From IMG/VR virus record IMGVR_UViG_2778261223_000007, positions 12,132 to 76,131 of that record: a stretch of DNA of 64,000 bases; one strand, written 5' to 3'. The position numbers and the translations under genes were made by a program. Positions 22,312-59,421 of the stretch are shown piece by piece; within the stretch, counting starts at the first letter, position 1; each line of letters opens with the position of its first letter. The notes under the pieces are model-generated. The model ran no database searches, had not been told where the DNA came from, and was given only the letters and a program-made list of their open reading frames with translations. This DNA is from a virus. Taxonomy: Duplodnaviria > Heunggongvirae > Uroviricota > Caudoviricetes.

Positions 22312-23018
22312 TGGATATCTGCATTCTTGAAAAGCCATCAATGACCAGCATTGAGATCGCGGAGCTGGTGGGAAAACGTCATGACAATGTGAAGCGTACC
22401 ATTGAAACATTAGCCGAATCCGGCGTTATTGTTCGTCCTCAAATTGAGGATGAACCAAAAATAGATGTAATGGGGCGTTCTCGATTAATTCAGGTGTTCC
22501 GATTTAGCGACGAGCAAGGCAAACGAGACAGCATCATTGTAGTCGCACAGCTTTGTCCTGAGTTTACTGCCCGGCTGGTGGACCGCTGGCGCGAACTGGA
22601 AGAACAAGTACGCCAGCCGTTGACCGAAATAGAGATGATCGCCGCAATGGCTGCAAATGCAGTTCAGCAGCAAAAGCGGCTTCATGCTGTTGAGTCAAAG
22701 GTTAGCCAGGTCGCTGAAACCGTCGAGCAAATCAAGAAGGGCAATATGCCAGATGGCTACATTGGCTACCGCCAGCTGGCGGCGAAATGTGGCCTGACCG
22801 AAGCCAAATGCCGTAACCTGGTTAACGCTTACCGGATTCCCACCGATACACATGAGTTTTTAACTCCAGAGGGGGTATTGTCGCGTCGTTCCATCGTGGC
22901 CTTATCTCCCTTCATGAATGCTTTTAACCGGATGATGTCGGAGGCTGAACACCGAGGAAAACGCTGGTATCACCCCAAAATGGGGCAATTCCAGGTGATC
23001 GGTTGGGGAGGTGAGTGA
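22311..23018 (+). CDS. Rha-family phage regulatory / antirepressor-like protein (module A)
   Basis: 235 aa. The N-terminal motif SIEIAELVGKRHDNVKRTIE is typical of the Rha family. Its C-terminal half is ~90% identical to 58495..59421. Confidence 0.7.
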   Translation: MDICILEKPSMTSIEIAELVGKRHDNVKRTIETLAESGVIVRPQIEDEPKIDVMGRSRLIQVFRFSDEQGKRDSIIVVAQLCPEFTARLVDRWRELEEQVRQPLTEIEMIAAMAANAVQQQKRLHAVESKVSQVAETVEQIKKGNMPDGYIGYRQLAAKCGLTEAKCRNLVNAYRIPTDTHEFLTPEGVLSRRSIVALSPFMNAFNRMMSEAEHRGKRWYHPKMGQFQVIGWGGE

Positions 23019-23215
23019 TGGACATCATGCAGGCGGTAAAAAAAATCAGGGAAGGACAGGCTGAAGTGTGCCGCCGTAAAGCATGGAGTGTTGGTGTATG
23101 GGCCTGGCCTGATAATTACTCTACTACCGGATGGTTTTGTATTAATGGACTCCAGATCCGGGAAGTTGATTTATCGACGGCTGATATAGTCGGTAATGAT
23201 TGGATCGTGACTTGA
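23018..23215 (+). CDS. DUF2829 (Tad2-like) small protein
   Basis: 65 aa from an ATG overlapping the Rha stop. Motifs VCRRKAWS...GVWAWP...DLSTADIVGNDWIV match the DUF2829 pattern. In module B the same domain is fused to the Rha C-terminus. Confidence 0.5.
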   Translation: MDIMQAVKKIREGQAEVCRRKAWSVGVWAWPDNYSTTGWFCINGLQIREVDLSTADIVGNDWIVT

Positions 23216-23223
23216 AGCGTGAT

Positions 23224-23248
23224 GCCCCGGCCTGGCCGGGGCTTTTTT
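23224..23248. terminator. bidirectional rho-independent terminator
   Basis: GCCCCGG-CCTGG-CCGGGGC followed by TTTTTT. It lies between convergent genes. Confidence 0.75.
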
Positions 23249-23733
23249 CATGCCTCATTAGTTGAGGTTGCTGCGTCTCCGACTGGTAACAGAGCGGTAT
23301 TGCGTGGTTCGCCAGCAGGCCAGCGATAGCCAGACACTCTTGATGTTGGGAATGCGCGAATATTAACCGCATCCCCCTGGTTCCCACCCAGGACAAGCAG
23401 ATCGCCATTGGCGCGGCGTCCGACAACGAAGCCTACGTGCCCACCGCCTACACGGGTAAATACAACGATACATCCGTATGCCGGTGTATCTAATTTCTCG
23501 CCCCAATCCAGATAGGATTTTGCCGACTCAAATCTTGTTGAGCGGATGCCTACACGTTCCAGCATTGCACCGACAAATGCTGCGCACCACGGCGTTTCAT
23601 CGTCTTTAATTCCGCCGCGCTTGATGTCGCGCCAGAACTGAACGATTTCAGGGTTGTGTTTAGCGCCTTTTATTTCAGTCAGGCCAATGTGCTTACGGGC
23701 TTCAATTAGCCAGCGAGGTTCAATGTTTGCCAT
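23248..23733 (-). CDS. TIGR02594-family putative peptidoglycan hydrolase
   Basis: 161 aa. Motifs KHNPEIVQFW...TPWCAAFV...GGHVGFVVG are typical of the phage-associated TIGR02594/CHAP-like family. Confidence 0.55.
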   Translation of the reverse strand: MANIEPRWLIEARKHIGLTEIKGAKHNPEIVQFWRDIKRGGIKDDETPWCAAFVGAMLERVGIRSTRFESAKSYLDWGEKLDTPAYGCIVVFTRVGGGHVGFVVGRRANGDLLVLGGNQGDAVNIRAFPTSRVSGYRWPAGEPRNTALLPVGDAATSTNEA

Positions 23734-23884
23734 ATTTTTCTCCCGGTCATGGGTTAATAAGTAGGCAAACTATGGGGAGTATGTGATTTTGACGGTAGTA
23801 TCGTCCCCCTGAAAATAACATTCTCCATACCCTCTCAACCGTACCGCATAGCGGAATTTTTTACGGTTTAGAGGGGGAAATCCT

Positions 23885-31591: not shown

Positions 31592-32086
31592 TTGTTGTTA
31601 TTATTTCGCATATTTACTATCAATTGGTGTGTTAGAAAAATAGCGCGAAAGAGAAGGCGTCGCAGTGAATATTCTGAAACATCCCCACATGCCGCAGCTC
31701 TTAGAGAACTGGAGAAAAACCCAGATCTAATCAAAAGGAACCATGAGCATTACGAGCAGGTTCGCGTCCTGGACTGGATGTATCGCAATATGCGTTATGT
31801 GTATGAGCATACTCACGCCACTCCAAACGGTGGCCTGCGAGGCATAAGGACGGCAATAAAAATGGTGGCAGAGGGCCAAAAGAAGGGATATCCCGATCTT
31901 TCTATAGACCTTGCTTGTGGGGGATACCACGGAATGCGCATTGAGATGAAACATGGGAGAAATCGCCTGACTCCCGAACAACTCGTCTGGATGACTCGCC
32001 TCACAGAAGCCGGTTACTACTGCTTTGAGGCGCGCAGTGCCGCTGAAGCCATAAAAGCTATCACGGAGTATGTTTGTCTTGATTAA
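31592..32086 (+). CDS. VRR-NUC domain nuclease-like protein. The true start is probably internal: TTG starts, with the ATGs at 31778 and 31790 as alternatives.
   Basis: C-terminal motif GIRTAIKMVAEGQKKGYPDLSIDLACGGYHGMRIEMKHGRNRLTPEQLVW matches VRR-NUC (G.KG.PDL...IE.K...S..Q..W). Confidence 0.6.
   Translation: MLLLFRIFTINWCVRKIARKRRRRSEYSETSPHAAALRELEKNPDLIKRNHEHYEQVRVLDWMYRNMRYVYEHTHATPNGGLRGIRTAIKMVAEGQKKGYPDLSIDLACGGYHGMRIEMKHGRNRLTPEQLVWMTRLTEAGYYCFEARSAAEAIKAITEYVCLD
31629..31646 (+). promoter_or_regulatory. partial C1-type operator-like motif
   Basis: GTGTTAGAAAAATAGCGC. The first 11 nt match the consensus. Confidence 0.3.
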
Positions 32087-32100: not shown

Positions 32101-32301
32101 TTGCGTTTACATAACGTGGCAGAACTTATCCCTGCAGGAACTAATGCTATCGCTCGTCGTCGCTCATGGCAGCAGGCTCTATGTATTGAGATCTCGAAAC
32201 GTATCAATGGAAGTTTTGAAGCTCGCAATATTGTTACTGGCGATAAGGTTCACATAACCCCGGAAAGTGCAAGCGCTGATGATTGGGAGTTTGTACATTG
32301 A
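32101..32301 (+). CDS. small DUF2829-like protein
   Basis: 66 aa with a TTG start (alternative GTG at 32116). It has ARRRSWQQ and the C-terminal motif ITPESASADDWEFV. Confidence 0.4.
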   Translation: MRLHNVAELIPAGTNAIARRRSWQQALCIEISKRINGSFEARNIVTGDKVHITPESASADDWEFVH

Positions 32302-35153: not shown

Positions 35154-35229
35154 GATGGTGTAGCTCAGCGGTTAGAGCGGTTGACTGTTAATCAACGGGT
35201 CGATGGTTCAAATCCATCCACCATCGCCA
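35154..35229 (+). tRNA. tRNA-Asn (GTT)
   Basis: Canonical cloverleaf with a 7-bp acceptor GATGGTG/CACCATC, a TTCAAAT T-loop, an encoded CCA, and the anticodon loop CTGTTAA. Confidence 0.9.
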
Positions 35230-35231: not shown

Positions 35232-35307
35232 GCCGGTTTAGCTCAGTTGGTAGAGCGCCTGCCTTGTAAGCAGGATGTCAGCGGTTCGAGTCCGTTAATC
35301 GGCACCA
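35232..35307 (+). tRNA. tRNA-Thr (TGT)
   Basis: Acceptor GCCGGTT/AATCGGC, T-loop TTCGAGT, encoded CCA, and anticodon loop CTTGTAA. It starts 2 nt after tRNA-Asn. Confidence 0.9.
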
Positions 35308-35772: not shown

Positions 35773-35859
35773 GGAGAGTAGGGCGCATGGTGCTCAAGCG
35801 GTCTTGAAAACCGTCCCATTGCGCAAGCGATGATGGTTCGATTCCATTACTCTCCGCCA
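35773..35859 (+). tRNA. degenerate type-II tRNA-like gene, tRNA-Ser(TGA)-like and possibly a pseudo-tRNA
   Basis: Acceptor GGAGAGT/ACTCTCC with CCA; anticodon stem-loop GCGGT-CTTGAAA-ACCGT; long variable arm; T-arm GATGG-TTCGATT-CCATT. The D-arm is irregular. Confidence 0.35.
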
Positions 35860-36126
35860 GCGCAACGTTAAGAGTATTTGGCTAATTAAGCGAATGCCGG
35901 AAGCAGAACCGGATCACCAAATGCGTACAGGCGTCATCGCCGCCCAGCCAGCCAAGTGCTCTTACCATTGCGGTGAATGCGGCTAAGCGCACGCGGAACA
36001 GTTAAAACAATCCTCCTTAGTGGTTAAGTCAAAAATCCCGGCGTTAATTGTTAACTGGTTAACGTCACCTGGAGGCACCAGGCACCGCAACCTAATAAAT
36101 ACGTCATGTTTATTGAGGGATAACCA

Positions 36127-36561
36127 ATGTTCGGTAAATTTTTCGGTAAGAAAGTCGCTTCAGCAAAAGTAGAGCTGAAAAGGGTTGAGAATCGCGATCT
36201 GATGGAGGCCATTATCGGTGGCTGTTTGTTGGTGTCTGCCGCAGATGGTGAAATCGAAAAGGAAGAAACAGCGAAACTTGATCAGCTTGTCCGCTCTAAT
36301 CCTCGCTTAAGTCATTTTGGCAACGAAATTACCGCAACAATCACCCGTTTTACTGAGCAACTGGAAGCTGGTTTCCGTGTTGGTCGCATGAATATCCTTC
36401 GCGAAATTGAAGATATCAAAAATGATCCAAAAGAAGCGGAAGAAGTATTCGTTAACATGCTGACGATTGCAGAAGCGGACGGTGAAATCGAGCCAGCAGA
36501 ACACAAAGTACTGGAAGAAGTAGGCCGTCGTTTGGGCCTTCGTGTGGAAGATTATCTGTAA
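36127..36561 (+). CDS. tciA: TerB-like protein (TciA-like, tellurite/phage-exclusion family)
   Basis: 144 aa with duplicated acidic motifs LLVSAADGEIEKEE and LTIAEADGEIEPAEHKVLEEVGRRLGL typical of TerB. Confidence 0.7.
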   Translation: MFGKFFGKKVASAKVELKRVENRDLMEAIIGGCLLVSAADGEIEKEETAKLDQLVRSNPRLSHFGNEITATITRFTEQLEAGFRVGRMNILREIEDIKNDPKEAEEVFVNMLTIAEADGEIEPAEHKVLEEVGRRLGLRVEDYL

Positions 36562-36725
36562 TGATTGGCAAGGCGCGTATTGCGTGCGCCATTGGTTTTC
36601 TCGTTTTGTCCGTGCTGGTGGATTTCACCAGCAAAGTGATGTCGGTGTTGGCTGATGGGGCACTGGTTTCAGTAGCTGTGGTATTGCTATTGCCGATTAT
36701 TAAAGCTGCGTTCAGGAACTCATGA
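36561..36725 (+). CDS. small membrane peptide (TciB position)
   Basis: 54-aa ORF not in the track (MIGKARIACAIGFLVLSVLVDF...). It has two hydrophobic segments and is coupled to the tciA stop (TAATG). Confidence 0.45.
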   Translation: MIGKARIACAIGFLVLSVLVDFTSKVMSVLADGALVSVAVVLLLPIIKAAFRNS

Positions 36726-36835
36726 TGGATTTTTGGACGTATATTGATAAGAACCCTGGATGGTCTTTGCTATTTCTGCTTGTGATCGTATACGGAGTAG
36801 AACAAGTAGCGAAGAATCTCAGGCGTCGAAAATAA
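36722..36835 (+). CDS. small membrane peptide (TciC position)
   Basis: 37-aa ORF (MMDFWTYIDKNPGWSLLFLLVIVYGVEQVAKNLRRRK) overlapping the previous stop. Confidence 0.4.
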   Translation: MMDFWTYIDKNPGWSLLFLLVIVYGVEQVAKNLRRRK

Positions 36836-36844
36836 AAACTAATT

Positions 36845-36920
36845 GGCCCCTTAGCTCAGTGGTTAGAGCTGGCGACTCATAATCGCACGGTCACCGGTTC
36901 AAGTCCGGTAGGGGCCACCA
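36845..36920 (+). tRNA. tRNA with CAT anticodon (Met or lysidine-modified Ile2 type)
   Basis: Perfect 7-bp acceptor GGCCCCT/AGGGGCC, D-arm GCTC-AGTGGTTA-GAGC, anticodon loop CTCATAA, T-loop TTCAAGT, encoded CCA. Confidence 0.85.
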
Positions 36921-37374
36921 TATTTGGTTGTAACACGGCGTCTGGCACATGCGTCGTTAGCGGTCTGGTGACGTTAAAGGGGTTACCTTTTCCCCTAGCT
37001 CAGGCAACAAACCAGGTAGCCGGAATGTGCAAGCCCCGTTCATATCGTCGGACCGAGGATTCACCATCCTGGCGATTCGGTGTGACAGCCGGAAGAGCAC
37101 GGCGCACAACAGGAAAAGGCGTTTAATTAGCGTGAGCGCCGTTTCCGTTGTGGTAATTGCGGCTATGCGCTCGTGACGAAGCCATTTTCATTCACTACGT
37201 TCTGATAAGTGACGTCGCCAGGAGTGGCTAACCTGGCAGGTGGAGGCACCACCGCCACAACTCCTTTCAATTCATCATATAGCCGCTCAGGCTGTACCCC
37301 TTAATTAATACGAAGTTACGACATCACTACCGGCACTTCCGGGGGATAGTCGCGCGTGTAAAAAAGGAGACGTT

Positions 37375-37950
37375 ATGTTAATGGCGAACGATAACGCATA
37401 TGCAGAAGAAGATCTCATTTTGAGTGACTTCATAGGGAAGCGTGAACGCTGGACCCAAAAGCGAGAGGAACTTTACGCCTCATTAGTTCGCAAAGGCGTC
37501 AATATCGAAACCGCACAGAGCGGCGATATGACAGTGGTAAGCGTTGGATTGCACGGTGTAAGCGTGTCAGCAATCAATCATGAGCCATACGTTGCGTTAT
37601 CCGAGTCAATGGTAAGGTTAGTTAAGTTCCTGAAGTACACAGAAGCGAATAATGTAATCATTGGCAAAAAGAATATCCCTTTTTCCTCGGCTTTTTACTG
37701 GATGATGAAAGGGCTTGATGCCCGGCGGACATCATGGCCTAAAGGGAGCTATATATCGATGTTCCGTGGCAGCATTGGCAGCAAAGAAAAGCTCTTCGAA
37801 TTCTTGCCGGAAGAGGCATTCGATATTGTGGAAGGGTGCGATGTGATGGTGATGCCTCGCCTGGTAATGATGAATGGTGATTTACAGGCGCAGACAGACT
37901 GGTTTGCAACTGGTGTGGATATTATCGCGACTGACTGGGAGGCTTTCTGA
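37375..37950 (+). CDS. hypothetical protein with a C-terminal DUF2829-like domain
   Basis: 191 aa. The C-terminal half carries KGLDARRTSWPKG ... GDLQAQTDWFATGVDIIATDWEAF, which resembles the DUF2829 pattern. Confidence 0.45.
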   Translation: MLMANDNAYAEEDLILSDFIGKRERWTQKREELYASLVRKGVNIETAQSGDMTVVSVGLHGVSVSAINHEPYVALSESMVRLVKFLKYTEANNVIIGKKNIPFSSAFYWMMKGLDARRTSWPKGSYISMFRGSIGSKEKLFEFLPEEAFDIVEGCDVMVMPRLVMMNGDLQAQTDWFATGVDIIATDWEAF

Positions 37951-38342
37951 TGTACGGGACTACCAAATTAAGCACTCAACAGGCCACCAATATTGAGTGG
38001 TCTATCGCTAACTGTAAGATCGTGTCATGCAATGCCACGCGTACTGATGTGGGCCATAAAAGCACTATAACAGGCTATCTAGTAATGACCACCAGGGGGA
38101 TGAGGGTTAGATTTCGTTGGAAAGCAGAGCAAGTAACGCCATTCAGAGAGCCATCAATGCCGCTGCAGGTTGAGCAGGATTATCTATGTTTACCAGAAAT
38201 AGATGGCGGAATGCTGGTGGAGTCTGATGGTAGTAAGGCTGATTTTGAAGCCAATTTGAAGCTGGCACAGGCCGTAATCAATAGTTATCGCGGACAGTGG
38301 ATCGCAAAAGTGAAACATGTTGTTCGTTTGTCTCGCTGGTAG
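37950..38342 (+). CDS. hypothetical protein
   Basis: 130-aa ORF coupled to the previous gene (ATGA overlap). Confidence 0.5.
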   Translation: MYGTTKLSTQQATNIEWSIANCKIVSCNATRTDVGHKSTITGYLVMTTRGMRVRFRWKAEQVTPFREPSMPLQVEQDYLCLPEIDGGMLVESDGSKADFEANLKLAQAVINSYRGQWIAKVKHVVRLSRW

Positions 38343-38354
38343 TATTAGATATTT

Positions 38355-38372
38355 GGTATTAATTTTCTAATA
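38355..38372 (-). promoter_or_regulatory. C1-type operator-like motif (partial), embedded in an 8-bp palindrome GTATTAGA..TCTAATAC
   Basis: The reverse complement is GTATTAGAAAATTAATAC. It lies upstream of the lpa-position gene. Confidence 0.35.
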
Positions 38373-38450
38373 CAATCATCTTTTTGCCAGTCTATACAGT
38401 TTTAACATTCTCATTATCATCCCCTCGGTCATTTCCTGCCCGGGGGATTA

Positions 38451-38843
38451 ATGGAACAAATCAGCAGCGCAGAAATTGCGGATATCATGATCAGGGCTGA
38501 CTGCTATCTGACAGTCACTGAAATTACCACTCTCGCCAAAGAAAAATACCCTCATCTCCATGTTTCACGAGTAAGTGTAACTAACATCATTCGTCATTTT
38601 GTTCGTTCAAGCAGGGCAATCTGTGAGCTTGATGATCGTGTGTATCCACGAAAATACTGGTTGCATGGCCTGAACGGATATCAGTTCAAGGTGCGTGGGC
38701 GAACCCCGGAATACGGCAGTTTACTGGTTAAAAACTGTAGCAGGAAATCAGTCGAACAGGCGCGAAAAGAGCAACGAGAGCTGGTGGACATGGCGAATAA
38801 GCTGTGGAATGCCGCCGTTAAAAAGCGTGGTGTTGCTTTATGA
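38451..38843 (+). CDS. late-gene activator candidate (Lpa position, immediately upstream of pacA)
   Basis: 130 aa. Its stop overlaps the pacA start. The call rests on position only. Confidence 0.3.
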   Translation: MEQISSAEIADIMIRADCYLTVTEITTLAKEKYPHLHVSRVSVTNIIRHFVRSSRAICELDDRVYPRKYWLHGLNGYQFKVRGRTPEYGSLLVKNCSRKSVEQARKEQRELVDMANKLWNAAVKKRGVAL

Positions 38844-40204
38844 GTCTGGTTAATTGGGAGGAGCACCGCGCCCGCTTTATGGCGTTGCGTGAAGAAAAAG
38901 GGATCACTGTAAAGGAATACTGTGAGGAGCATGGCCTTAGCTTCAATACAGCCAGAAAGCATCTCAATATGAAAAAAAATGAGGTGCGGTCGCAGGTAAA
39001 GACAACAAAAAAAAGCACCAAATCACCTGAAAAAAAACGGGCGGGAAGAGCAACAAAAAAGCTGGAAGAGGGTGCAGAAAAAACAAAATTTACAGAAATT
39101 GACAATTCGCAGGGCGCAGGTTCTTTCCGAAGTATGCCGAGAAAGAAAACTTCGGATCATGAAAATAATTCAAATAATAACAATGAGATAAAAGAATCCG
39201 TCAGGAGATCATTGCGCGAAAAAATGGCGAAAATGATCCCCGAAGAAGATAAAAGCGCCCCAAAAATTGAGGGATCTTCTGCAATGATCCCTGACGGTGC
39301 TGTGCAGCGTGCCACATTGCCAACTACGAATGTGGCTCGCGATATGATGAAGAACGGCGCAGAAGAACACCTGCGGTTAGCAATTCAAATGGCGCAAGAG
39401 CGCGCACTTCAGTATCAAAGCATTGTTGATCAGGAGGCCGAACGTCTACAGGCGGAAATAGACGCCTTGGGCGATAAAGAGCCAGAAGGAATGCACCCTG
39501 GGCAGCGCCTTCTCGGTCTAATCAGTGACGCGGCCTACTACATGAATGATTTTATCAGTAGGTTGGCAGCTATATATCAGTCCGAACAAAAGCTGCGACA
39601 GGGGGATGAAAAGCTTCGTCAGAGCGCTCGCCAGCAAGCATTCAAAGAGGCTGAGGCCAGAGAAAAACTCGAATTAGCACGCCTACAGGCCGAACAGCGT
39701 GGCAAAGAGATTGAATATCGCATTGGCGCTGACGCACGCGCAGCCAGAGTTATCGCCGCCGCTATACGTATGCGTGAGCGCGAGGAACTGGATGATATCG
39801 GTGTTGCTGAATACATCGAGCGCCAGGGTGTCAGCGTCCCGGCTATCCTCGCGGCGCGCGCGGCGAAAGCTATCACTCTTCTCGAACCACCTGTTTCTGA
39901 CGTCAATGATGTTGATGATGAACAGCTGGACAAAGAGGCAAGGGAGTTTGCAACGCTTCAGGCTAACCATCCGCAATGGCTGGCAGAGCGCCGGGCGGAT
40001 GTGGCAACCATTGTTGAAGAATTGGGGTGCGGAGATTACGACCGCAATGGCGAGCGTAAAGCAGGAGAATTCGAGGCCAACGACGAAGAGCTGGATATTG
40101 ACCCTTCGGCAACGGCTGAAATTTACGGTGATTATGATGCATCTGATGCAGGGTATGACGCCGGAGATGATGATATCGCGATAGAACCGCCGGAGGATGA
40201 TTAA
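38840..40204 (+). CDS. pacA: terminase small subunit (PacA-like)
   Basis: 454 aa with an N-terminal HTH (ITVKEYCEEHGLSFNTARKHL), a K-rich linker and an acidic C-terminus. It is coupled to the large subunit. Confidence 0.65.
   Translation: MSLVNWEEHRARFMALREEKGITVKEYCEEHGLSFNTARKHLNMKKNEVRSQVKTTKKSTKSPEKKRAGRATKKLEEGAEKTKFTEIDNSQGAGSFRSMPRKKTSDHENNSNNNNEIKESVRRSLREKMAKMIPEEDKSAPKIEGSSAMIPDGAVQRATLPTTNVARDMMKNGAEEHLRLAIQMAQERALQYQSIVDQEAERLQAEIDALGDKEPEGMHPGQRLLGLISDAAYYMNDFISRLAAIYQSEQKLRQGDEKLRQSARQQAFKEAEAREKLELARLQAEQRGKEIEYRIGADARAARVIAAAIRMREREELDDIGVAEYIERQGVSVPAILAARAAKAITLLEPPVSDVNDVDDEQLDKEAREFATLQANHPQWLAERRADVATIVEELGCGDYDRNGERKAGEFEANDEELDIDPSATAEIYGDYDASDAGYDAGDDDIAIEPPEDD
39147..39293. 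other. candidate pac region: a cluster of four (T/G)GATC(A/C) hexamers inside pacA
   Basis: GATC at ~39149, 39234, 39272 and 39290. P1 pac is a Dam-methylated hexamer cluster within pacA. Confidence 0.25.
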
Positions 40205-41712: not shown

Positions 41713-41713
41713 A

Positions 41714-41730
41714 GCCCCGCGATGCGGGGC
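41714..41730. terminator. GC-rich hairpin between convergent genes (weak terminator)
   Basis: GCCCCGC-GAT-GCGGGGC. No strong T-run follows it. Confidence 0.3.
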
Positions 41731-41739
41731 CGGTTGTGA

Positions 41740-42777
41740 TTACCAGAGCTTCGCGGCGTACTGCGTTTGGGGGAATGTGTATCCGTAACGTTCTTCGATT
41801 GCTTTGCCGTATTTTTTACGAGCTTCATTCAGTTTAATGCCGGTCAGGTCGTCTCCAGAGGCCATCATTACGTCTAACAATTCCAGATCCATTTTATCCA
41901 GCCTTGCCATTGCTTCACGTGATGTACGTATCTTACGCTCAATGATATGGCGAATAGCCGGATCGGCATCCTCCAGCATCTTAGCGGATTTCTGCTTAAG
42001 GCTTTCATTGCGAATATCGATGTTCCTTAAGATGTACGACTTCGCAACGTAGCTTGGCTGGTGTTTTTCCAGGTCACGAACACGATATAAGTTAAAATCG
42101 CCGAGAAGGCTGCAAGGTACCGATTCGACGCCAGAATAAATTGTAATGCTCCGGCGTTCACCAACATTATTGACAACGGGGATCGTTGTCTTCGGTTGTC
42201 TTGCGAAAACCAATGCGCCATGTGCGCCAACTCTAAAGCGAGAAAGGGCATTGCTGCCTTCGATGTTTGTTGTCAGCACAACATCTGTATATGCCTCTTT
42301 ACGCGCCCGGTAGATCTCGCCTTCAGGCTCAGCTTCAAAGAAGCGCTGTTCTTCTTCAAGAGCACCTACGATTTGAGAAAAAACCCTATTTTTCAGGCTT
42401 TTCTTTATGATTTTGTCGTATTTTTTTAGCAATTGTTCACGTGTAAATGTACGTGTTGTTGTAGCGCTTTGCACAACGACATGCGTGCTTTGATTGGTGT
42501 CCTCAATGATGAATGGGATCGGAGAATATACAGACTCAACAATGTTCGACGCTTTGCCGTCGGCATCGCGGCACATGTCAACGAAGGCTTTCCATTCAGC
42601 AAGACATTTTTCAGCTTCTTCTAATATGTTTTGGTCATGCGTTAATGCAACATGGCGGAATTCCTCGCCAGCATAACTGGTATCATGGAAAACAGAGTTT
42701 GCGACCACCAGCTCTTTCCACCGTTCAGCGGTTTGCAGGAACCGTTTGTACTCTTTCTCGATCGACTTCTTACTCAT
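41740..42777 (-). CDS. hypothetical 345-aa protein. Position and operator-like repeats in its promoter make it a candidate C1-type immunity repressor, though this is unverified.
   Basis: Long minus-strand ORF between pacB and rox. Two operator-like motifs lie just upstream of its start. No similarity was recognised from the sequence itself. Confidence 0.5.
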   Translation of the reverse strand: MSKKSIEKEYKRFLQTAERWKELVVANSVFHDTSYAGEEFRHVALTHDQNILEEAEKCLAEWKAFVDMCRDADGKASNIVESVYSPIPFIIEDTNQSTHVVVQSATTTRTFTREQLLKKYDKIIKKSLKNRVFSQIVGALEEEQRFFEAEPEGEIYRARKEAYTDVVLTTNIEGSNALSRFRVGAHGALVFARQPKTTIPVVNNVGERRSITIYSGVESVPCSLLGDFNLYRVRDLEKHQPSYVAKSYILRNIDIRNESLKQKSAKMLEDADPAIRHIIERKIRTSREAMARLDKMDLELLDVMMASGDDLTGIKLNEARKKYGKAIEERYGYTFPQTQYAAKLW

Positions 42778-42788
42778 TATTCCTACTC

Positions 42789-42806
42789 GATTTAGTTTTC
42801 TAACAT
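42789..42806 (-). promoter_or_regulatory. C1-type operator-like motif
   Basis: The reverse complement is ATGTTAGAAAACTAAATC. It lies 12 nt upstream of the 345-aa gene start. Confidence 0.45.
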
Positions 42807-42877
42807 AAAATTACTATGACAAATTTATGTCGAATAACAGAGTGAGTAAAGGATCGAACTGTGATTTTTTGTCATCA

Positions 42878-42893
42878 ATTTTAGAAAACCAAC
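42878..42893 (+). promoter_or_regulatory. partial operator-like motif
   Basis: TTTTAGAAAACCAACC. Confidence 0.25.
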
Positions 42894-42986
42894 CGTAGAA
42901 ACCACACTTCGCTAATTAAAGACCATGAAGGCAACGTGTTACTGGTCATCATCAATCTATGATGGATTAAAAAAAATCGGCATTTT

Positions 42987-43020
42987 ATAACTTTAAATAA
43001 TTGGCATTATTTAAAGTTAG
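42987..43020. other. rox: rox-type recombination target site (14-4-14 palindrome), the Dre recombinase substrate
   Basis: ATAACTTTAAATA-ATTGGCAT-TATTTAAAGTTAG. The 32-bp core TAACTTTAAATAATTGGCATTATTTAAAGTTA is the reverse complement of the published rox site. It lies 150 bp upstream of the Cre homologue. Confidence 0.9.
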
Positions 43021-43171
43021 GCTATAATCATGTGTAGATGAACAGTATTGACATCACTGAAAATACGTGCATCCAATCAAAGGCTTGTATTTTGAAAATT
43101 AACTTATAGCTACCCTGTCATTTTTATATTTTTCGCGTAGCTTCATCTGTATATAGAGGTGAAATGGTTTC

Positions 43172-44200
43172 ATGAGTGAATTAATTATCTCTGGCAGTTC
43201 CGGTGGTTTTCTGCGCAACATTGGCAAAGAGTACCAGGAAGCCGCAGAAAACTTTATGCGGTTCATGAATGATCAGGGTGCTTATGCGCCGAATACTCTG
43301 CGCGACCTCCGGTTGGTGTTTCATTCCTGGGCGCGCTGGTGTCACGCTCGCCAGCTTGCCTGGTTTCCGATCTCACCAGAAATGGCCCGCGAGTATTTTC
43401 TTCAGTTGCATGATGCCGATCTGGCTTCGACCACCATTGATAAGCACTACGCCATGCTTAACATGCTGCTTTCTCATTGTGGCCTTCCGCCACTTTCGGA
43501 TGATAAAAGTGTTTCTCTGGCTATGCGGCGTATCCGGCGCGAAGCGGCAACGGAAAAAGGCGAACGAACAGGCCAGGCTATACCGCTGCGATGGGACGAC
43601 CTGAAACTGCTCGACGTCCTGTTGTCCAGGTCAGAACGGCTGGTGGACCTGCGCAACCGGGCTTTTCTCTTTGTTGCATACAATACGCTGATGCGTATGT
43701 CGGAAATCTCGCGTATTCGTGTAGGAGATCTGGACCAAACAGGTGACACTGTCACGCTACATATTTCACACACGAAGACAATAACGACCGCCGCCGGGCT
43801 TGATAAGGTGCTTTCCCGTCGCACTACTGCTGTGCTGAATGACTGGCTGGATGTTTCCGGGCTTCGTGAACATCCTGACGCGGTGCTGTTCCCGCCGATA
43901 CACCGTAGCAATAAGGCCAGGATTACGACAACGCCCCTTACTGCACCTGCAATGGAGAAAATATTCAGCGACGCCTGGGTGTTGCTGAATAAAAGGGATG
44001 CCACGCCAAACAAAGGGAGATACCGGACGTGGACCGGGCATAGTGCTCGTGTCGGGGCCGCTATCGATATGGCTGAAAAGCAGGTGTCTATGGTGGAGAT
44101 TATGCAGGAAGGAACCTGGAAGAAACCGGAAACACTTATGCGGTATCTGCGCCGTGGCGGTGTGTCTGTGGGGGCTAATAGCCGCTTGATGGATTCATAA
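43172..44200 (+). CDS. dre: Dre tyrosine recombinase (Cre homologue)
   Basis: 342 aa. It aligns along its whole length with Cre (WFP..PE..R.Y...L...GL...TI..H...LNML...GLP.PSD...VSL.MRRIR...GER..QA....DL....A.NTL.R..EI.RIRV.D...GHSARVGAA.DMA). Confidence 0.92.
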   Translation: MSELIISGSSGGFLRNIGKEYQEAAENFMRFMNDQGAYAPNTLRDLRLVFHSWARWCHARQLAWFPISPEMAREYFLQLHDADLASTTIDKHYAMLNMLLSHCGLPPLSDDKSVSLAMRRIRREAATEKGERTGQAIPLRWDDLKLLDVLLSRSERLVDLRNRAFLFVAYNTLMRMSEISRIRVGDLDQTGDTVTLHISHTKTITTAAGLDKVLSRRTTAVLNDWLDVSGLREHPDAVLFPPIHRSNKARITTTPLTAPAMEKIFSDAWVLLNKRDATPNKGRYRTWTGHSARVGAAIDMAEKQVSMVEIMQEGTWKKPETLMRYLRRGGVSVGANSRLMDS

Positions 44201-44216
44201 ATTAAATTTCTAACAC
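44199..44216 (-). promoter_or_regulatory. C1-type operator-like motif
   Basis: The reverse complement is GTGTTAGAAATTTAATTT. Confidence 0.4.
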
Positions 44217-44261
44217 ATCTTTTTAGATTGATATCTTTGCTGTAAAGTACCCTCGCCTATT

Positions 44262-44618
44262 TTGGAGGGTGCTTTGCAGAGTCAAATCACGGAATCAAGA
44301 CGCTTCACGGTGGATGGTTACACCGTAACCTTCGCCGCTGGTGTTAAGAACAGTCATGCTGTCGTTGTATTCGGCATCATGACCGGGCTTGAGGCCGTCC
44401 CTGTGTTTACCCTCGAAAAAAACTGGCGAAATCTGGAGGAAGCAGAAAGCTACGTCCGGAAAGTAACCATCATTGCCGCCGAAAAACTCCTGGCCCACTA
44501 TCAGGAAAATTATCGCACTATGGTCGAGAAGATTAATCTCGCTTTCACTCGCCCCACTACCGGCTTTATTGCACCGGATACTAATGCAGGTCGATATCCG
44601 GCAAGGGGGCGTCGGTGA
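44262..44618 (+). CDS. hypothetical protein (start uncertain, TTG)
   Basis: 118-aa ORF. Confidence 0.35.
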   Translation: MEGALQSQITESRRFTVDGYTVTFAAGVKNSHAVVVFGIMTGLEAVPVFTLEKNWRNLEEAESYVRKVTIIAAEKLLAHYQENYRTMVEKINLAFTRPTTGFIAPDTNAGRYPARGRR

Positions 44619-45091
44619 AAACTTATTACCCATCTCTGAATTGTTACCCGTCTTCCTATCCAGGATTGTCCGGGAAGCTGTTAGCTCTATTAGCTAAAGC
44701 ACCTACGGAATGGTTTAAGCCAGTCGTTATCAATCCACACTTCCTGGATTACGGATCTGTTCGCACTCGTAACGAACTCAAAAACCTACTGGCGCATGGA
44801 TTCATTCGACACCGTGCCGGTAAAGGCTATCAGTTATCGATTGCGCCAGAAGAGGCCGTGCGGCTATTCGCATATCGTGACAGCCAGACAAAAGCTCGGG
44901 TAATAGCTCAAATACTTCATAACGGCAGCACCTATGCCCGCCAGTTTGGCGGCGACACGTCGCAGTTCTTGCGGGCGGTGCGATCGCTGGAGGAGCAAGG
45001 AGTTATTGAAAGTTCCTGTCTTCCTGTTCCAACCGTTCCACATATCAAACGTCGGGTTTACACCTTCACGCAGAGAGCTAAAAAACAATGA
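44615..45091 (+). CDS. hypothetical protein
   Basis: 158 aa. Its GTG start overlaps the upstream stop. Confidence 0.45.
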   Translation: MKTYYPSLNCYPSSYPGLSGKLLALLAKAPTEWFKPVVINPHFLDYGSVRTRNELKNLLAHGFIRHRAGKGYQLSIAPEEAVRLFAYRDSQTKARVIAQILHNGSTYARQFGGDTSQFLRAVRSLEEQGVIESSCLPVPTVPHIKRRVYTFTQRAKKQ

Positions 45092-45582
45092 TTTACGTAA
45101 AAGTGAAACGCCTACATCCGGCAGCAAAACTTCCAGCTTATGCCACCTCCGGATCGGCGGCGATGGATTTTGAGGCTGTTGAAATAAAACCATGTGTCGA
45201 TAGCAATGGTGCAATTTCCTCAAGCTGGTGGGTGTACACCGGATTGGCTATGGAGATCCCGCCCGGCTGGTGTCTGAAACTCTATCCGCGATCCGGATTG
45301 GGCTGCAAAAAACATACTCGCCTGGCTAACTGCGTAGGAATTATCGACTCCGATTATCGCGGCGAAATCATGGCAAAACTGATTACTGATCCCGGCGGGG
45401 AAGGCGTTTGTCTCAAGCCTGGAATGGCTGTCATGCAAGGAATTTTTGAGCGTGTTGAACAAGTCTCACTAGTCGAGGTTGAGGAACTCAACGAAACGGA
45501 ACGTGGTGATGGTGGCTTTGGTAGCACATCGGAAGGCCACTTTGAAATTAAGCGTTCACCGCTTCAGTACGAAAAGTTATAA
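45088..45582 (+). CDS. dut: dUTP diphosphatase
   Basis: 164 aa with the trimeric-dUTPase motifs AMDFEAV, PRSGLG and GIIDSDYRGEI. Confidence 0.8.
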   Translation: MIYVKVKRLHPAAKLPAYATSGSAAMDFEAVEIKPCVDSNGAISSSWWVYTGLAMEIPPGWCLKLYPRSGLGCKKHTRLANCVGIIDSDYRGEIMAKLITDPGGEGVCLKPGMAVMQGIFERVEQVSLVEVEELNETERGDGGFGSTSEGHFEIKRSPLQYEKL

Positions 45583-45596
45583 GCAGAGAAAAGACT

Positions 45597-46037
45597 ATGA
45601 ATAACATGGCAACGAAAGAGCTTTTTAAGTTCCTTCCAAAATACAAAGCTCACAAAAAAAATGGAACCACGGTCATCATTACGGATGACAACGGCGTGAT
45701 GATTAATCTTACCGGGAGCGTAACTATTTCTGCTGGTGGCATCACCACCCAGCAAGAAGAAATCGACCTTGAAGCAGCCGACTTTTCTGACGCGCTGATG
45801 TGGCTGAAGGATGGCAAGAAAGTTGCTCGACGCGGGTGGAACGGCGAAAACCAATTCTGCTGGCTGGTTCCTGAAGGACAGTACCCGGCACGAATGGAAG
45901 CCATTAAGGGATATTTCCCCGGCGACCTCGTTCCGTATGGTGCTTATTTCGCCTTAAAAAATGCACAAGGTGTAGTTGTTCCGTGGGTTCCTTCTGTAGG
46001 CGACTTACTGGCATGTGACTGGTTTGTGGTGGAGTGA
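45597..46037 (+). CDS. DUF2829 / Tad2-like protein with an extra N-terminal domain
   Basis: 146 aa. Its C-terminus (ALMWLKDGKKVARRGWNGENQFCWLVPEG...VVVPWVPSVGDLLACDWFVVE) is a near-canonical DUF2829. Confidence 0.65.
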   Translation: MNNMATKELFKFLPKYKAHKKNGTTVIITDDNGVMINLTGSVTISAGGITTQQEEIDLEAADFSDALMWLKDGKKVARRGWNGENQFCWLVPEGQYPARMEAIKGYFPGDLVPYGAYFALKNAQGVVVPWVPSVGDLLACDWFVVE

Positions 46038-46043
46038 TTTAAC

Positions 46044-46820
46044 GTGGAAAATACTAAAGCAATTCAATACCGCTTGCGTAATGGCCTGCTGGTGGCTGTT
46101 AACGCCGACATGTCACTGCCGTTTGACACGATTGAACGCACTATCATGACATATCTCGGCTTTAATGAAGAACTGAATGAAGAGCATGGCGTAGCTATAT
46201 GGAGCGATGCAGAAAGCGGCGTTCATCGTTACATCACCGCCAGGGGCAAAGACTACTCTCTGGAAGAACTGTTTACCCTTGCACAGTCTTTCGAATGTGT
46301 AGCATTAGACATGTTTAATGATCCTGCTATAGCGCAACGACTTATACGCGAGCTTGGGCTATCCGTTACACCAATTATCTTTAAGAATGGCAGCCTGACT
46401 GGCACATGGCGCGTAGAACGCATCTCAAACTACCTTCCATATAACCGACAGTTAAATGGAGTAATCTCCGGCGTTAATCAGCCCGTAGCGTGTGAAAATG
46501 TAAACCTGGTTGTCGCTGTTTTGGCAACCGCATGTCGTGTTATCGGTTTGGCTAAACAGGCATTTATTCATTTCCCAAATGGTGCAGAAGGTAGCGCAGA
46601 GATTATCGCGTGTGATTTCGAATTTACCTGGATGCTACGCGAATATCTGGACCAAACAGTATTCCGTGCCGAAGAACTGGATATGTATATCACGTCAACG
46701 ATTCCAGACGATGTGCGAGCAGAAGCAATCGCTACAGCCAGGGCGAAATGCCGTGCGGCGATTGCAGAACGGGCCAAAGAAGAACAGTCCAATGATACAG
46801 CGGCAGAAGAGGTGGAATAA
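46044..46820 (+). CDS. hypothetical protein
   Basis: 258-aa ORF followed by a terminator. Confidence 0.55.
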   Translation: MENTKAIQYRLRNGLLVAVNADMSLPFDTIERTIMTYLGFNEELNEEHGVAIWSDAESGVHRYITARGKDYSLEELFTLAQSFECVALDMFNDPAIAQRLIRELGLSVTPIIFKNGSLTGTWRVERISNYLPYNRQLNGVISGVNQPVACENVNLVVAVLATACRVIGLAKQAFIHFPNGAEGSAEIIACDFEFTWMLREYLDQTVFRAEELDMYITSTIPDDVRAEAIATARAKCRAAIAERAKEEQSNDTAAEEVE

Positions 46821-46824
46821 CAAA

Positions 46825-46853
46825 AAGCCCGCTTGGTATGGCGGGCTTCTTTT
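46825..46853 (+). terminator. rho-independent terminator
   Basis: AAGCCCGC-TTGGTATG-GCGGGCTT followed by CTTTTC. Confidence 0.65.
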
Positions 46854-47071
46854 CAAATACTGGAAGCACTTTGTCTGCTACCAAGCATTCTCTGTTTAAG
46901 CACAACCATTTCCTGACGGCATAACACAGCAATAGCGGTCCTGGCACCAATTTGCTTACCAACCAGGTATTGCTTTACCTCGCGGCGACTCACGCCATCA
47001 AGAAGCATCTTTAACGCTTCACGGGACAACTTGTTGTATTTACGTGCCATTAATCTACTCCGCAGAACCAT
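46853..47071 (-). CDS. small HTH-like ORF overlapping the doc 3' end (questionable)
   Basis: 72 aa ([40 protein letters not shown]). It resembles a transposase/regulator N-terminal HTH and overlaps doc by 17 nt. Confidence 0.25.
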
Positions 47072-51043: not shown

Positions 51044-51044
51044 A

Positions 51045-52373: not shown

Positions 52374-52386
52374 TGCGTTGTTCCCA

Positions 52387-53382: not shown

Positions 53383-53423
53383 AATGTATACCGACTCTGT
53401 TTTGTTCCGAGCGGTAAAATAAT

Positions 53424-53441
53424 GTGTTAGAAAACTAAAAT
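53424..53441 (+). promoter_or_regulatory. C1-type operator-like motif
   Basis: GTGTTAGAAAACTAAAAT. It is followed by the partial repeat ATGTTCTAAC. Confidence 0.4.
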
Positions 53442-53480
53442 CAATGTTCTAACGTAATTTTGAGTGCGTAAATGATTTGA

Positions 53481-56773: not shown

Positions 56774-56811
56774 GTCCTCCAAACAGTTATCAGGAATGAT
56801 ATTAATGTTTT

Positions 56812-56829
56812 GTGTTAGAAAATCAATTT
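56812..56829 (+). promoter_or_regulatory. C1-type operator-like motif in the divergent ref / ea-operon promoter region
   Basis: GTGTTAGAAAATCAATTT. P1 ref is known to be C1-controlled. Confidence 0.5.
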
Positions 56830-56890
56830 TGAATATCTAATCATTTTGATCAATCATAGAAAAATCGCTGAAAAGTAAGAGGCAGCCATC

Positions 56891-57469: not shown

Positions 57470-57480
57470 TTTTCTAACAT
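57463..57480 (-). promoter_or_regulatory. C1-type operator-like motif
   Basis: The reverse complement is ATGTTAGAAAACTAATTT. Confidence 0.4.
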
Positions 57481-57800
57481 TTTAAGTTGAATTGTAAATT
57501 TCTCCGATGTACATTCACTACCGATTGGCACACCGGTCAACTTTTTGAGACAAACTGTTTAGTTTTTCGTATTATTGCCGCCGCTATACCTATGGCGGTG
57601 CAATATAGGTGGCTGAAAAGCCCCCGTTGACTCACGGTGTTCCAGCCTTTATTGCGCCGCCACCAGACCGTGGAACAGTCGATGGCGGCTCCGAAAGCAA
57701 GGAGTCACTACACTATGAACAGCTACTGTCTTTTCCCATCACTCGTTGTCCGCCACTCACGCGATAATCTGCATTCTTTACTCGCGCTGGGGGTGTCAAA

Positions 57801-57968
57801 ATGACCGTTCGTTACCTCAACTTTCAAATCCAGAACATCACTGGCGGTTGCTATGACTGGTTTGTCACTCTCGGAAAAGAAGTGATCACCGGGAAGCTGG
57901 ATGAAGTGAAAACTAAAGCAATGGCCTACGCCTGCAAGCAAGCCCGGAAGAAATCCGCCAAAGCATAA
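57801..57968 (+). CDS. 55-aa ORF in the leader of immI-like module B (questionable)
   Basis: MTVRYLNFQIQNITGGCYDWFVTLGKEVITGKLDEVKTKAMAYACKQARKKSAKA. Confidence 0.25.
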   Translation: MTVRYLNFQIQNITGGCYDWFVTLGKEVITGKLDEVKTKAMAYACKQARKKSAKA

Positions 57969-58073
57969 AATACTGACTGTTGCGCCCTGGCATTATCGTG
58001 GGGTATATTTCTACGGCACCTTAGAAAAACGGGTGCCGGGATTGGAACCCCGGATAATGTCAAAGGCGACACA

Positions 58074-58094
58074 GACGCCGAAAGCGTCTTTTTT
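58074..58094 (+). terminator. rho-independent terminator
   Basis: GACGC-CGAAA-GCGTC followed by TTTTTT. Confidence 0.7.
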
Positions 58095-58109
58095 GTGTCA
58101 TGCCATCGC

Positions 58110-58270
58110 ACAGCCATACGTAGCGTTTAGCTCAGAGATCAATGGTAGTGCTGGCTGGGCTGCCGAAAGGCAGGCCGGTTCCCTTTGACGCCGGTAGTTC
58201 CAACCCAGTCAGTGCTACCGCCATTGAGATTGGAACCTCACGCGGTAGCTCCTTAACTTAGTCAAAGGAG
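58110..58270 (+). ncRNA. candidate c4-like regulatory RNA / structured leader upstream of the icd-like gene
   Basis: Contains the tRNA-like TAGCTCAGAGATCAATGGTAG and the hairpins CTGCC-GAAAG-GCAG and GGTTCC-CTTTGACGCCGGTAGTTCCAACC. It ends at the icd-like RBS. Confidence 0.25.
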
Positions 58271-58279
58271 GCTGCCAAT

Positions 58280-58495
58280 ATGGCTACTATCCCTACCCCA
58301 ACTCATTCTGAATTTATCTGGCGTTTCTATTCCTGCCAAAAACACCTGTATATCTGCGTCATGGCTGCTACCGAAGCAGAGGCGCGCTCATACCTTCCCG
58401 AAGAACCCTGCATTTTTGCTGCTCGCTTCACTCTTGATGCGATGGAGATCCTCAATTACTGGAATCTGCCGATGAACTGCGTGGAGGCGCACTGA
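58280..58495 (+). CDS. Icd-like small protein (module B)
   Basis: 71 aa, a paralog of 22087..22311. Its stop overlaps the Rha start. Confidence 0.5.
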   Translation: MATIPTPTHSEFIWRFYSCQKHLYICVMAATEAEARSYLPEEPCIFAARFTLDAMEILNYWNLPMNCVEAH

Positions 58496-59421
58496 TGAAT
58501 CTGTCCATCTCTCAAAAAGCGACAATGACCAGCATTGAGATCGCGGAACTGGTAGGTAAGCGCCCTGATAACGTTAAACGCACCATTGAACACCTGGCGG
58601 AACGGGGCGTAATATCTTTTCCTCAAATTGAGGAAAAGCCCACCGCAGGCCGCCCGGCGAGCTATTACGTCTTTGAAGGCGAACAAGGCAAGCGTGACAG
58701 TATCATTGTCGTCGCACAGCTTTCTCCCGAATTTACCGCCCGGCTGGTGGACCGCTGGCGCGAACTGGAGAATGCCCGGGTACAGTTAAAATCAAAAGCC
58801 GAAATCCTGGCTGAAATGGCGCAAATGCATCTTGAGCATGAACGCCGGATCAACGCCGTTAATGCCCAGGTAGCCGAAGTATCGGCACAAGTGTCCAAAG
58901 TCGCTGAAACCGTCGAGCAAATCAAGAAAGGCAATATTCCGGAAGGCTACATTGGCTACCGCCAGCTGGCGGCGAAATGTGGCCTGACTGAAGCCAAATG
59001 CCGAAACCTGGTTAACGCTTACCGGATTCCCACCGATACGCATGAGTTTTTAACTCCCGATGGTTTGCTTGCGCAACGCTCCATTGTGGCCCTGGCCCCC
59101 TTCCGGAAAGCCTTTAAGCAGGTGATGTCGGAGGCAGAACCACGCAATAAACGCTGGTATCATCCAAAGATGGGGATGTTTCAGGCAATCCACCATCCTG
59201 TGCCTGAAAGTCCAAAGGCAAACCTGTCGTTGCATACCGCCAGAGAGAGGATTAAAACAGGCTATGCAATCGTATGCCGTCGAGCATCCTGGCCTGAAGG
59301 TGTATGGGTGTGGCCCGAAGGTGGATCACGAAAGCACTGGCGCACTATCCGGGATGGGAAAATCCATGCGATTGATTTAGCTCCAGAGGATGTTGTTGCT
59401 ACGGACTGGATTGTTAGTTAA
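58495..59421 (+). CDS. Rha-family antirepressor-like protein fused to a C-terminal DUF2829-like domain (module B)
   Basis: 308 aa. The first ~240 aa are collinear with module A Rha. The C-terminal 60 aa (IVCRRASWPEGVWVWP...DLAPEDVVATDWIVS) are collinear with the separate 23018..23215 ORF. Confidence 0.7.
   Translation: MNLSISQKATMTSIEIAELVGKRPDNVKRTIEHLAERGVISFPQIEEKPTAGRPASYYVFEGEQGKRDSIIVVAQLSPEFTARLVDRWRELENARVQLKSKAEILAEMAQMHLEHERRINAVNAQVAEVSAQVSKVAETVEQIKKGNIPEGYIGYRQLAAKCGLTEAKCRNLVNAYRIPTDTHEFLTPDGLLAQRSIVALAPFRKAFKQVMSEAEPRNKRWYHPKMGMFQAIHHPVPESPKANLSLHTARERIKTGYAIVCRRASWPEGVWVWPEGGSRKHWRTIRDGKIHAIDLAPEDVVATDWIVS

Follow-up and report, generated by a model that had tools for sequence, protein, structure and literature searches.

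Escherichia phage D6 (MF356679 / NC_050154) is a circular plasmid prophage of 91,159 bp that resembles P1 and carries five members of the PF11195 (Tad2-like / DUF2829) superfamily. They lie in a stretch of 64,000 nucleotides (IMG/VR record IMGVR_UViG_2778261223_000007, positions 12,132 to 76,131), here called the window, which matches D6 at 99.5% identity (megablast of window 36000-47000) and runs as the reverse complement of the D6 record. The five members probably fall into three functional grades: a canonical Tad2 domain (grade A, orf114), a divergent long form (grade B, orf6) and three minimal domains (grade C, orf17, orf11 and the C-terminus of orf82) that, on balance, do not appear to be canonical sponges of glyco-cyclic ADP-ribose (gcADPR) or cyclic dinucleotides. 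Two of the minimal domains belong to Rha-type antirepressors in duplicated immunity operons, in one as a fusion and in the other as a separate polypeptide. One sponge is expected in D6, and probably two, as judged from sequence. The open reading frames (ORFs), whose positions and translations were checked, are as follows.

23018..23215 (+), orf17 (gp110), 65 aa: minimal Tad2-like domain encoded on its own, the C-terminal module detached from the antirepressor paralog orf18.
32101..32301 (+), orf11 (gp116), 66 aa: stand-alone minimal Tad2-like domain, between a pmgM-like VRR-NUC gene and a pmgR-like gene.
37375..37950 (+), orf6 (gp006), 191 aa: N-terminal region of ~95 aa, then a divergent long-form Tad2-like domain (residues ~99-190, nt ~37669-37947).
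45597..46037 (+), orf114 (gp013), 146 aa: N-terminal extension of 57 aa, then a canonical Tad2 domain (residues 58-146, nt 45768-46034).
58495..59421 (+), orf82 (gp045), 308 aa: Rha-type antirepressor with a C-terminal minimal Tad2-like domain (residues 244-308, nt 59224-59418).

Only one of the five (orf114, 'DUF2829 domain-containing protein') carries a DUF2829 label in the D6 record. The products of orf17, orf11 and orf6 are annotated as 'hypothetical' and that of orf82 as 'anti-repressor Ant'. All five translations share a helix followed by (A/C)RRxxW and a C-terminal DW(I/E/F)(V/F). On the strength of this pattern, an earlier sequence-only reading had proposed that the five segments are homologous and Tad2-like, and the comparisons described here support that proposal. 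The start given for orf17 at 23018 is indeed an ATG, with an in-frame GTG at 23015.

The cleanest sequence test of homology is a hidden Markov model (HMM) built from 18 experimentally studied Tad2 proteins (Table S2 of 10.1101/2025.08.24.671296). When searched against the 1151 six-frame ORFs of at least 30 aa in the window, this model placed the five ORFs at ranks 1-5 (E = 1e-22, 2e-11, 0.017, 0.67 and 5). The Pfam profile PF11195, with a gathering cut-off of 25 bits, separated them further. Two copies scored above the cut-off (orf114, 81.3 bits, E=7.7e-23; orf6, 39.1 bits, E=1.1e-9) and two below it (orf17, 15.1 bits in an end-to-end alignment; the isolated orf82 domain, 12.4 bits). No match to PF11195 was obtained for orf11; its relatives P0132 (13.1 bits, full length) and P0129 (11.4 bits) also stayed below the cut-off. 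The search against PF11195 that had been proposed for each segment was thus positive for two copies, and the other three are tied to the family by profile-profile and rank tests.

The minimal copies are also linked to one another and to the long forms. By BLASTP, orf17 and orf82 residues 244-308 share 40% identity (E=1e-17), and orf11 is 28% identical to orf82 residues 244-305 across its whole length (E=3e-5). Shuffling gave z-scores of 23 for orf17 and the orf82 domain, 10 for orf11 and the orf82 domain, 6.5 for orf6 and orf114, and 4.7 for orf6 and orf82. Among the 1151 ORFs, a profile of the orf11 family recovered orf17 (7e-4), orf82 (2e-3) and then orf6, and the orf17/orf82 profile recovered orf11 (3e-4). 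A merged profile of orf11 and orf17/82 matched orf6 at 9.5e-4, and a local Tad2 profile matched orf6 at 2.7e-6 with orf17 and orf82 ranked next. In hhalign comparisons, the orf17/82 family aligned with Tad2 at P=1e-5 and the orf11 family with the orf17/82 family at P=1.3e-5. A forced global alignment of the orf11 family with a narrow Tad2 alignment was weak (P=0.039, poorly aligned), and the link of orf11 to Tad2 therefore rests on this transitive chain and on the structure search. In that search, run with orf17 against BFVD, the best three named matches were 'Thoeris anti-defense 2-like' or 'DUF2829' proteins of 66-75 aa (probability 0.98-1.0). The predicted secondary structure (DSSP strings) follows the Tad2 order and has the fold of the PF11195 family: an N-terminal helix, a five-stranded antiparallel sheet and a short helix before the last strand. 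The diverged copies were therefore not assigned to unrelated folds, the outcome that would have spoken against the earlier proposal.

Further searches set the limits of the set. Profile searches revealed no sixth copy among the window ORFs or in the remaining 48 kb of D6, which puts the number of Tad2-like copies recognizable by sequence profiles in D6 at exactly five. When the orf11 family was the query of an exhaustive profile search, six diverse relatives of 66 aa (P0129-P0134) were gained, and no bridge to canonical Tad2 emerged. Three long metagenomic tandem-repeat proteins (P0135, P0136 and P0137; E 1e-4 to 9e-4) matched over a short 'TG(D/E)xV' segment only and were judged spurious, as low-complexity or repeat artefacts. 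A word-indexed homolog search returned five close relatives for orf11 and three for orf17; the best 120 matches of orf82 all had at least 75% identity. NCBIfam gave nothing useful for the D6 copies, and a direct sequence search of the PDB with orf6 returned only noise.

The members of the Tad2 family inhibit CBASS, Pycsar and Thoeris types I, II and IV, and they use two different pockets. In SPO1 Tad2, the ligand is sandwiched by W25 and W73 with polar contacts from N26, S76, T78 and D79, and alpha2 and beta2 build a V-shaped dimer. In MoTad2 and HgmTad2, a second pocket is formed by the region after beta2 (the beta2-beta3 insert/alpha2). The D6 copies were aligned with these three proteins and compared by SPO1 numbering at W25, N26, W73, S76 and D79. 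All five residues are kept in orf114. The equivalents of W25, W73 and D79 are kept in orf6, with N26 replaced by P. Of the five, the domains of orf17 and orf82 keep only W25 and D79 and are without N26 and W73, and orf11 keeps W25 only. The beta2-beta3/alpha2 insert is of comparable length in orf114 and orf6 and is missing from orf17, orf11 and the orf82 domain, as seen in both the alignment and the DSSP strings.

The description of 45597..46037 as near-canonical holds in full, both in its PF11195 score (81 bits) and in the five pocket residues. In the PDB, orf114 matches ModTad2 (9eib) and Tad2 (8v3e) at E ~2e-20, and also HgmTad2/AcrIIA7 and SPO1 Tad2. Its domain is 68% identical to Tad2_68 and 45% identical to MoTad2. 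Members of the ModTad2 clade, including one from an enterobacterial prophage, inhibit type II Thoeris by binding histidine-ADP-ribose (His-ADPR), and MoTad2 also binds cyclic UMP and cyclic CMP (cUMP/cCMP). Tad2_68 inhibits type II Thoeris (y/y/y) and was validated against type I (Table S2 of 10.1101/2025.08.24.671296; the column scheme of the table read the control rows SPO1 Tad2, MoTad2, HgmTad2 and Tad2_71 correctly). Thus, orf114 is a strong candidate for a Thoeris sponge. Confidence is high for its family assignment and moderate for its ligand, which is predicted from these relatives. The protein would form a tetramer, by homology, and would disarm Thoeris by sequestering TIR-made signals derived from ADP-ribose (His-ADPR and/or 3' cyclic ADP-ribose, 3'cADPR). 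A second pocket for cyclic nucleotides is possible. The gene order around this copy is cre - orf117 - orf116 - dUTPase - orf114 - isaA-like. The dUTPase gene (45088-45582) lies directly upstream of orf114 in the same apparent operon and downstream of the cre-like recombinase gene.

The long form in orf6 scored E=1.8e-11 with the 18-protein HMM, and its nearest tested relatives by BLASTP are Tad2_69 (E=2.7e-8) and Tad2_72 (E=3e-7). In the same Table S2 (10.1101/2025.08.24.671296), Tad2_69, which has an RRASWP-type motif, is inactive (0/7 systems), and Tad2_72, which has the WP-type motif RRKAWP, is recorded as inhibiting type I Thoeris. No family match was found for the N-terminal region of ~95 aa. 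The divergent long-form domain behind it is probably also a ligand binder.

The minimal copies have been reduced to ~65 aa and keep the fold signature of RR..W and DW. Their nearest tested relative is Tad2_80 (E=2.5e-4 to the orf82 domain), a protein of 73 aa that inhibits 0/7 signalling systems (Table S2, 10.1101/2025.08.24.671296). The three would form a clade of the D6 lineage in which the fold core (alpha1, RR..W, DW) was kept and the elements of the pocket and the V-dimer were lost. In the orf11 family, the invariant positions are L3, G13, R19, W23 (equal to W25), G47, A59, D61 and W62, mostly positions of the fold signature.

The location of orf11 was shown to be conserved. Downstream of darB-ulx, the gene is flanked by a pmgM-like VRR-NUC gene on one side and a pmgR-like gene on the other. 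The order in a phage-plasmid of Enterobacter hormaechei is SNF2/darB - ulx(olxA) - small ORF - VRR-NUC - orf11 homolog (38% identity) - pmgR-like. Since this order is shared with a distant Enterobacter phage-plasmid, the position of orf11 is fixed and is not a variable accessory slot. As a solo derivative of the minimal class, orf11 would sit beside the darB-ulx anti-restriction block; its closeness to this Dar block is suggestive and proves nothing. The neighbouring gene at 31592-32086 has only the annotation 'pmgM-like, putative morphogenetic function'. In Pfam, it scores above the cut-off for the VRR-NUC nuclease domain (E=5e-6), and the same pmgM-like position is annotated VRR-NUC in the Enterobacter plasmid.

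The other two minimal copies are connected to antirepressors. The earlier reading had described one copy as fused to an antirepressor, and this is correct. The N-terminus of orf82 matches Pfam Phage_pRha with a winged helix-turn-helix and belongs to PHROG 63 (Ant); residues 244-308 form the Tad2-like domain behind it, and residues 247-307 match phrog_7385, the family of orf17 (E=1e-13). A second antirepressor gene, orf18, lies immediately upstream of orf17. The features of the two operons are as follows.

21834-21886, module 1: a1/b1 target element (c4-a1b1; Rfam RF03163, 54.4 bits).
21954..22039 (+), module 1: C4 antisense RNA (Rfam RF01695, 68.8 bits, above the gathering score).
22087..22311 (+), module 1: icd-like gene (orf19), annotated in D6 as 'similar to P1 icd', directly downstream of the C4 RNA.
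22311..23018 (+), module 1: orf18 (gp109), 235 aa, Rha-type antirepressor body (Pfam Phage_pRha), paralog of orf82 residues 1-232 and without the fused domain.
23224..23250 (+), module 1: strong intrinsic terminator-like hairpin, a stem of 8 G-C pairs and then TTTTTT, which closes the c4-icd-ant-orf17 operon.
58016-58094, module 2: isrK-like element upstream of C4 (Rfam RF01394, 62.7 bits).
58138..58225 (+), module 2: C4 antisense RNA (Rfam RF01695, 77.1 bits, above the gathering score).
58280..58495 (+), module 2: icd-like gene (orf83), annotated in D6 as 'similar to P1 icd'.

In both modules (21834-23250 and 58016-59421), C4 RNA, icd and the antirepressor gene follow one another in this order on one strand. 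D6 therefore carries a pair of immI operons in the style of P1 (c4-icd-ant), both with the Tad2-like module as their final coding element. The product of orf18 is 66% identical to orf82 residues 1-232 (E=9e-111). Because orf18 matches residues 1-232 and orf17 matches residues 244-308, the pair orf18+orf17 is a split copy of orf82. At the junction, GGGGAGGTGAGTGATGG, a Shine-Dalgarno sequence is present and the TGA of orf18 overlaps the ATG of orf17 by one base (TGATG), an arrangement that implies translational coupling of orf17 to orf18. These results revise the view of five paralogs in different contexts, given that two of the five belong to one duplicated c4-icd-ant module. The copies had also been described as scattered through accessory slots. 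This does not apply to three of the five, namely orf17 and orf82, which lie in immI modules, and the syntenic orf11.

A sequencing frameshift was considered as the origin of the split and was rejected, as 17 of 18 independent contigs, along with many plasmids, show the same split with its Shine-Dalgarno sequence and TGATG overlap. Among these 18 related IMG/VR contigs, the split was kept in 17, and the fused form was kept in module 2. The ratio of nonsynonymous to synonymous polymorphism (pN/pS) of the fused orf82 domain is 0.18, which indicates purifying selection. A natural deletion was seen in one contig (L092:2001-2204, IMGVR_UViG_2778261184_000002), where almost the whole Ant body is gone and the Tad2-like domain remains in frame within a stop-to-stop ORF of 91 codons. 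The homologs of orf82 are mosaic (P0012-P0014, P0030, P0107, P0109 and P0112). Their first ~55 residues (winged helix; window 58495-58680) occur in at least three unrelated variants and the rest exceeds 85% identity, which suggests exchangeable specificity heads. In P1, no RRxxW...DW C-terminus was seen in Ant1 by eye, and no Tad2-like ORF scored in nt 1-51,500, which include immI and the isaA/IS1/isaB region.

In P1, the immI operon (c4-icd-ant) is translated at infection, before C4 RNA accumulates. In lysogens of the P1 type, C4 RNA blocks the translation of icd and ant. The minimal domain in D6 would be the terminal module of an immI antirepressor of the Rha type, fused to it in one c4-icd-ant operon and translated as a coupled, separate polypeptide in the other. 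In the split operon, orf17 could act as a separate polypeptide that is co-translated stoichiometrically and always made together with Ant. The favoured reading is that the minimal class probably provides an autonomous small subunit, made alongside Ant as soon as infection or induction begins. It would work through a partner (Ant itself, the C1-type repressor, whose gene in D6 lies at window 41740-42777 on the minus strand, or a host factor) or through a non-canonical ligand.

The arrangement is conserved in a defined group of elements. In PLSDB, matches of the orf17 type were found in 122 plasmids at 223 places, mostly two per plasmid, and orf11 was found in 119 plasmids. Nearly all carriers are non-mobilizable elements of ~90 kb from E. 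coli, Salmonella and Shigella. A tblastn search of GenBank phages found the orf82 domain (with orf17), orf11 and orf6 in D6 only. A search of IMG/VR loci with the orf17/orf82 alignment returned two D6-type groups only, and there is therefore no wider antirepressor-Tad2 family in IMG/VR.

The alternatives to the three-grade reading concern the origin and the use of the minimal copies. That the three are unrelated to Tad2, as small beta-rich proteins in which RRxxW and DW arose by chance or convergence, is highly improbable. It is already contradicted by the ranks 1-5 of 1151 from a profile of published Tad2 proteins only, full-length colinear alignments, reciprocal profile matches (E 3e-4 to 2e-3 among the 1151 ORFs), the hhalign P of 1e-5, the predicted order of secondary structure and the BFVD matches of orf17. 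The main rival is that D6 has five sponges, each tuned to a different immune nucleotide, so that it would be broadly protected from Thoeris, CBASS, Pycsar and type III CRISPR; the fusion to Ant would then serve merely for very early expression. The range of defences that the family inhibits through its two pockets fits this rival, as does the expression of P1 immI at once on infection, which is established knowledge and agrees with the annotation of P1. In addition, W25 is present without exception in every copy, orf11 adjoins the darB-ulx anti-restriction genes, and the free orf17 polypeptide implies that the domain is autonomous. Even so, the rival is considered unlikely. W73, N26 and the entire beta2-beta3/alpha2 segment, on which both known pockets and the V-dimer depend, are absent from the minimal copies, and both Tad2_80 and the RRASWP-type Tad2_69 are inactive in all seven systems. 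A stable fusion to a regulator in ~120 plasmids usually reflects a functional link and not timing alone.

A sensory role has also been considered, in which the Ant-linked minimal domain binds a small molecule of the host or of its immune systems and switches Ant activity, so that lysis-lysogeny is coupled to the state of the cell. The family is a proven binder of small molecules, and in the two paralogous immunity operons the domain is joined to Ant either covalently or by translational coupling. Comparison of the two modules shows lower identity for the domain (40%) than for the Ant body (66%), which is what a separate specificity for each module would predict. The known pocket residues are gone, however, and the split module would need a sensor acting in trans. 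By established P1 biology, C4 RNA blocks icd/ant in lysogens, and the sensor would be scarce when sensing matters most. No precedent was found in the literature searched, and this role is thought quite unlikely. Similarly doubtful is a broader version, in which the module attached to the immI Ant binds a host immune or stress nucleotide and ties the lysis-lysogeny switch, or the first minutes of infection, to host signalling defences. The sponge fold would then have been recruited as an input or partner domain of Ant, with orf11 as a third, free derivative.

The three-grade reading, in which the minimal copies are not canonical sponges, is favoured over these alternatives, and several observations weigh against it. 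Tad2_80 shares only ~26% identity with the orf82 domain, and 3/7 of its assays rest on plaque-assay validation alone, as the 96-well transformation failed (10.1101/2025.08.24.671296). Its negative result therefore carries over only weakly. The specificity of Tad2 is plastic, and Tad2_72 is recorded as an inhibitor of type I Thoeris without N26 (10.1101/2025.08.24.671296). The loss of canonical residues is therefore no proof that the sponge function was lost. The ligand-stacking W25 is invariant in all minimal copies and in the whole orf11 family, and its conservation could mean that a pocket was retained. Finally, the pN/pS of orf17 is 0.63, on very little divergence. Of the two options raised in the sequence-only reading, a sponge family with different specificities is supported for orf114, plausible for orf6 and unsupported for orf17, orf11 and the orf82 domain, which lost pocket elements and have an inactive nearest tested relative in Tad2_80. 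The evidence agrees better with the other option, in which the domain has a second, further use, than with five sponges.

Published work already covers the Tad2 family, including its plasticity and short members, and the D6 genome is public. In the literature searched, no recognition of the four further Tad2-like members of D6 was found, nor a three-grade split, nor the conserved solo copy, nor a fused or split link between a Tad2-like domain and an antirepressor of the Rha type in duplicated immI operons. There is nothing unusual about the canonical copy, and the antirepressor-linked minimal clade is the part worth experiment. Among the phage sponges of immune signals, the Tad2 family is the most widespread and the most plastic in function, and published surveys test stand-alone proteins singly. 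D6-like phage-plasmids (~120 complete plasmids in PLSDB; E. coli, Salmonella, Shigella) carry five members at once and offer a natural system for how far the fold can be stripped and re-used. The split and fused pair is a link in the style of a Rosetta stone between an anti-defence fold and an immunity switch. A minimal domain that binds a ligand or the repressor would be a new input to the control of lysogeny. A purely structural one would mark the limit of the sponge family and advise caution against calling every DUF2829 match 'anti-Thoeris'. A domain can now be assigned to four D6 genes whose annotation is 'hypothetical' or plain 'Ant', and orf114 offers a concrete candidate for a Thoeris inhibitor in an enterobacterial element that is widespread.

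Apart from these genes, a tRNA with a CAT anticodon (Met, or Ile2 if modified) was found at window 36845-36920 (+) by ARAGORN and Rfam and is missing from the three tRNAs of NC_050154 for this region. The other tRNAs lie at 35154-35229, 35232-35307 and 35773-35859, all on the window (+) strand. All four are thus on the minus strand of the record; its feature table gives the three annotated ones as '+'.

The five D6 copies resemble known systems to different degrees. The orf114 domain is like Tad2_68 and MoTad2 (ModTad2, 9eib, 8v3e) in length class, pocket residues and identity over the full domain; these proteins have 87-89 aa and are without the 57-aa N-terminal extension of orf114. SPO1 Tad2 (Gp34.65, PDB 8sme), the founding gcADPR sponge, has the order alpha1-beta1-beta2-beta3-beta4-alpha3-beta5, RxxW and DW in common with all five. 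Compared with it, orf6 has P for N26 and an extra N-terminal region, whereas orf17, orf11 and the orf82 domain are without alpha2, the beta2-beta3 loop, W73 and N26. In HgmTad2 / AcrIIA7 (8kbi, 9kzr), a long beta2-beta3 insert builds the cyclic-dinucleotide pocket, and this insert is missing from the minimal copies. Their best sequence and BFVD structure matches are Tad2_80 and the Tad2-like/DUF2829 phage proteins of 66-75 aa (e.g. Pectobacterium phage CBB A0A1L2CVD1), which share the minimal length, the RRxxWP-type beta1 loop and the absence of W73. Proteins of the Tad2_80 type are stand-alone, at only ~26% identity, and have no known antirepressor link, in contrast to the antirepressor-fused orf82 domain. 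The D6 operons have the same gene order as P1 immI (c4 - icd - ant1/ant2). P1 has one such module and D6 has two, and family matches set the P1 Ant1 type apart from the Rha type of orf18 and orf82 (Phage_pRha, PHROG 63).

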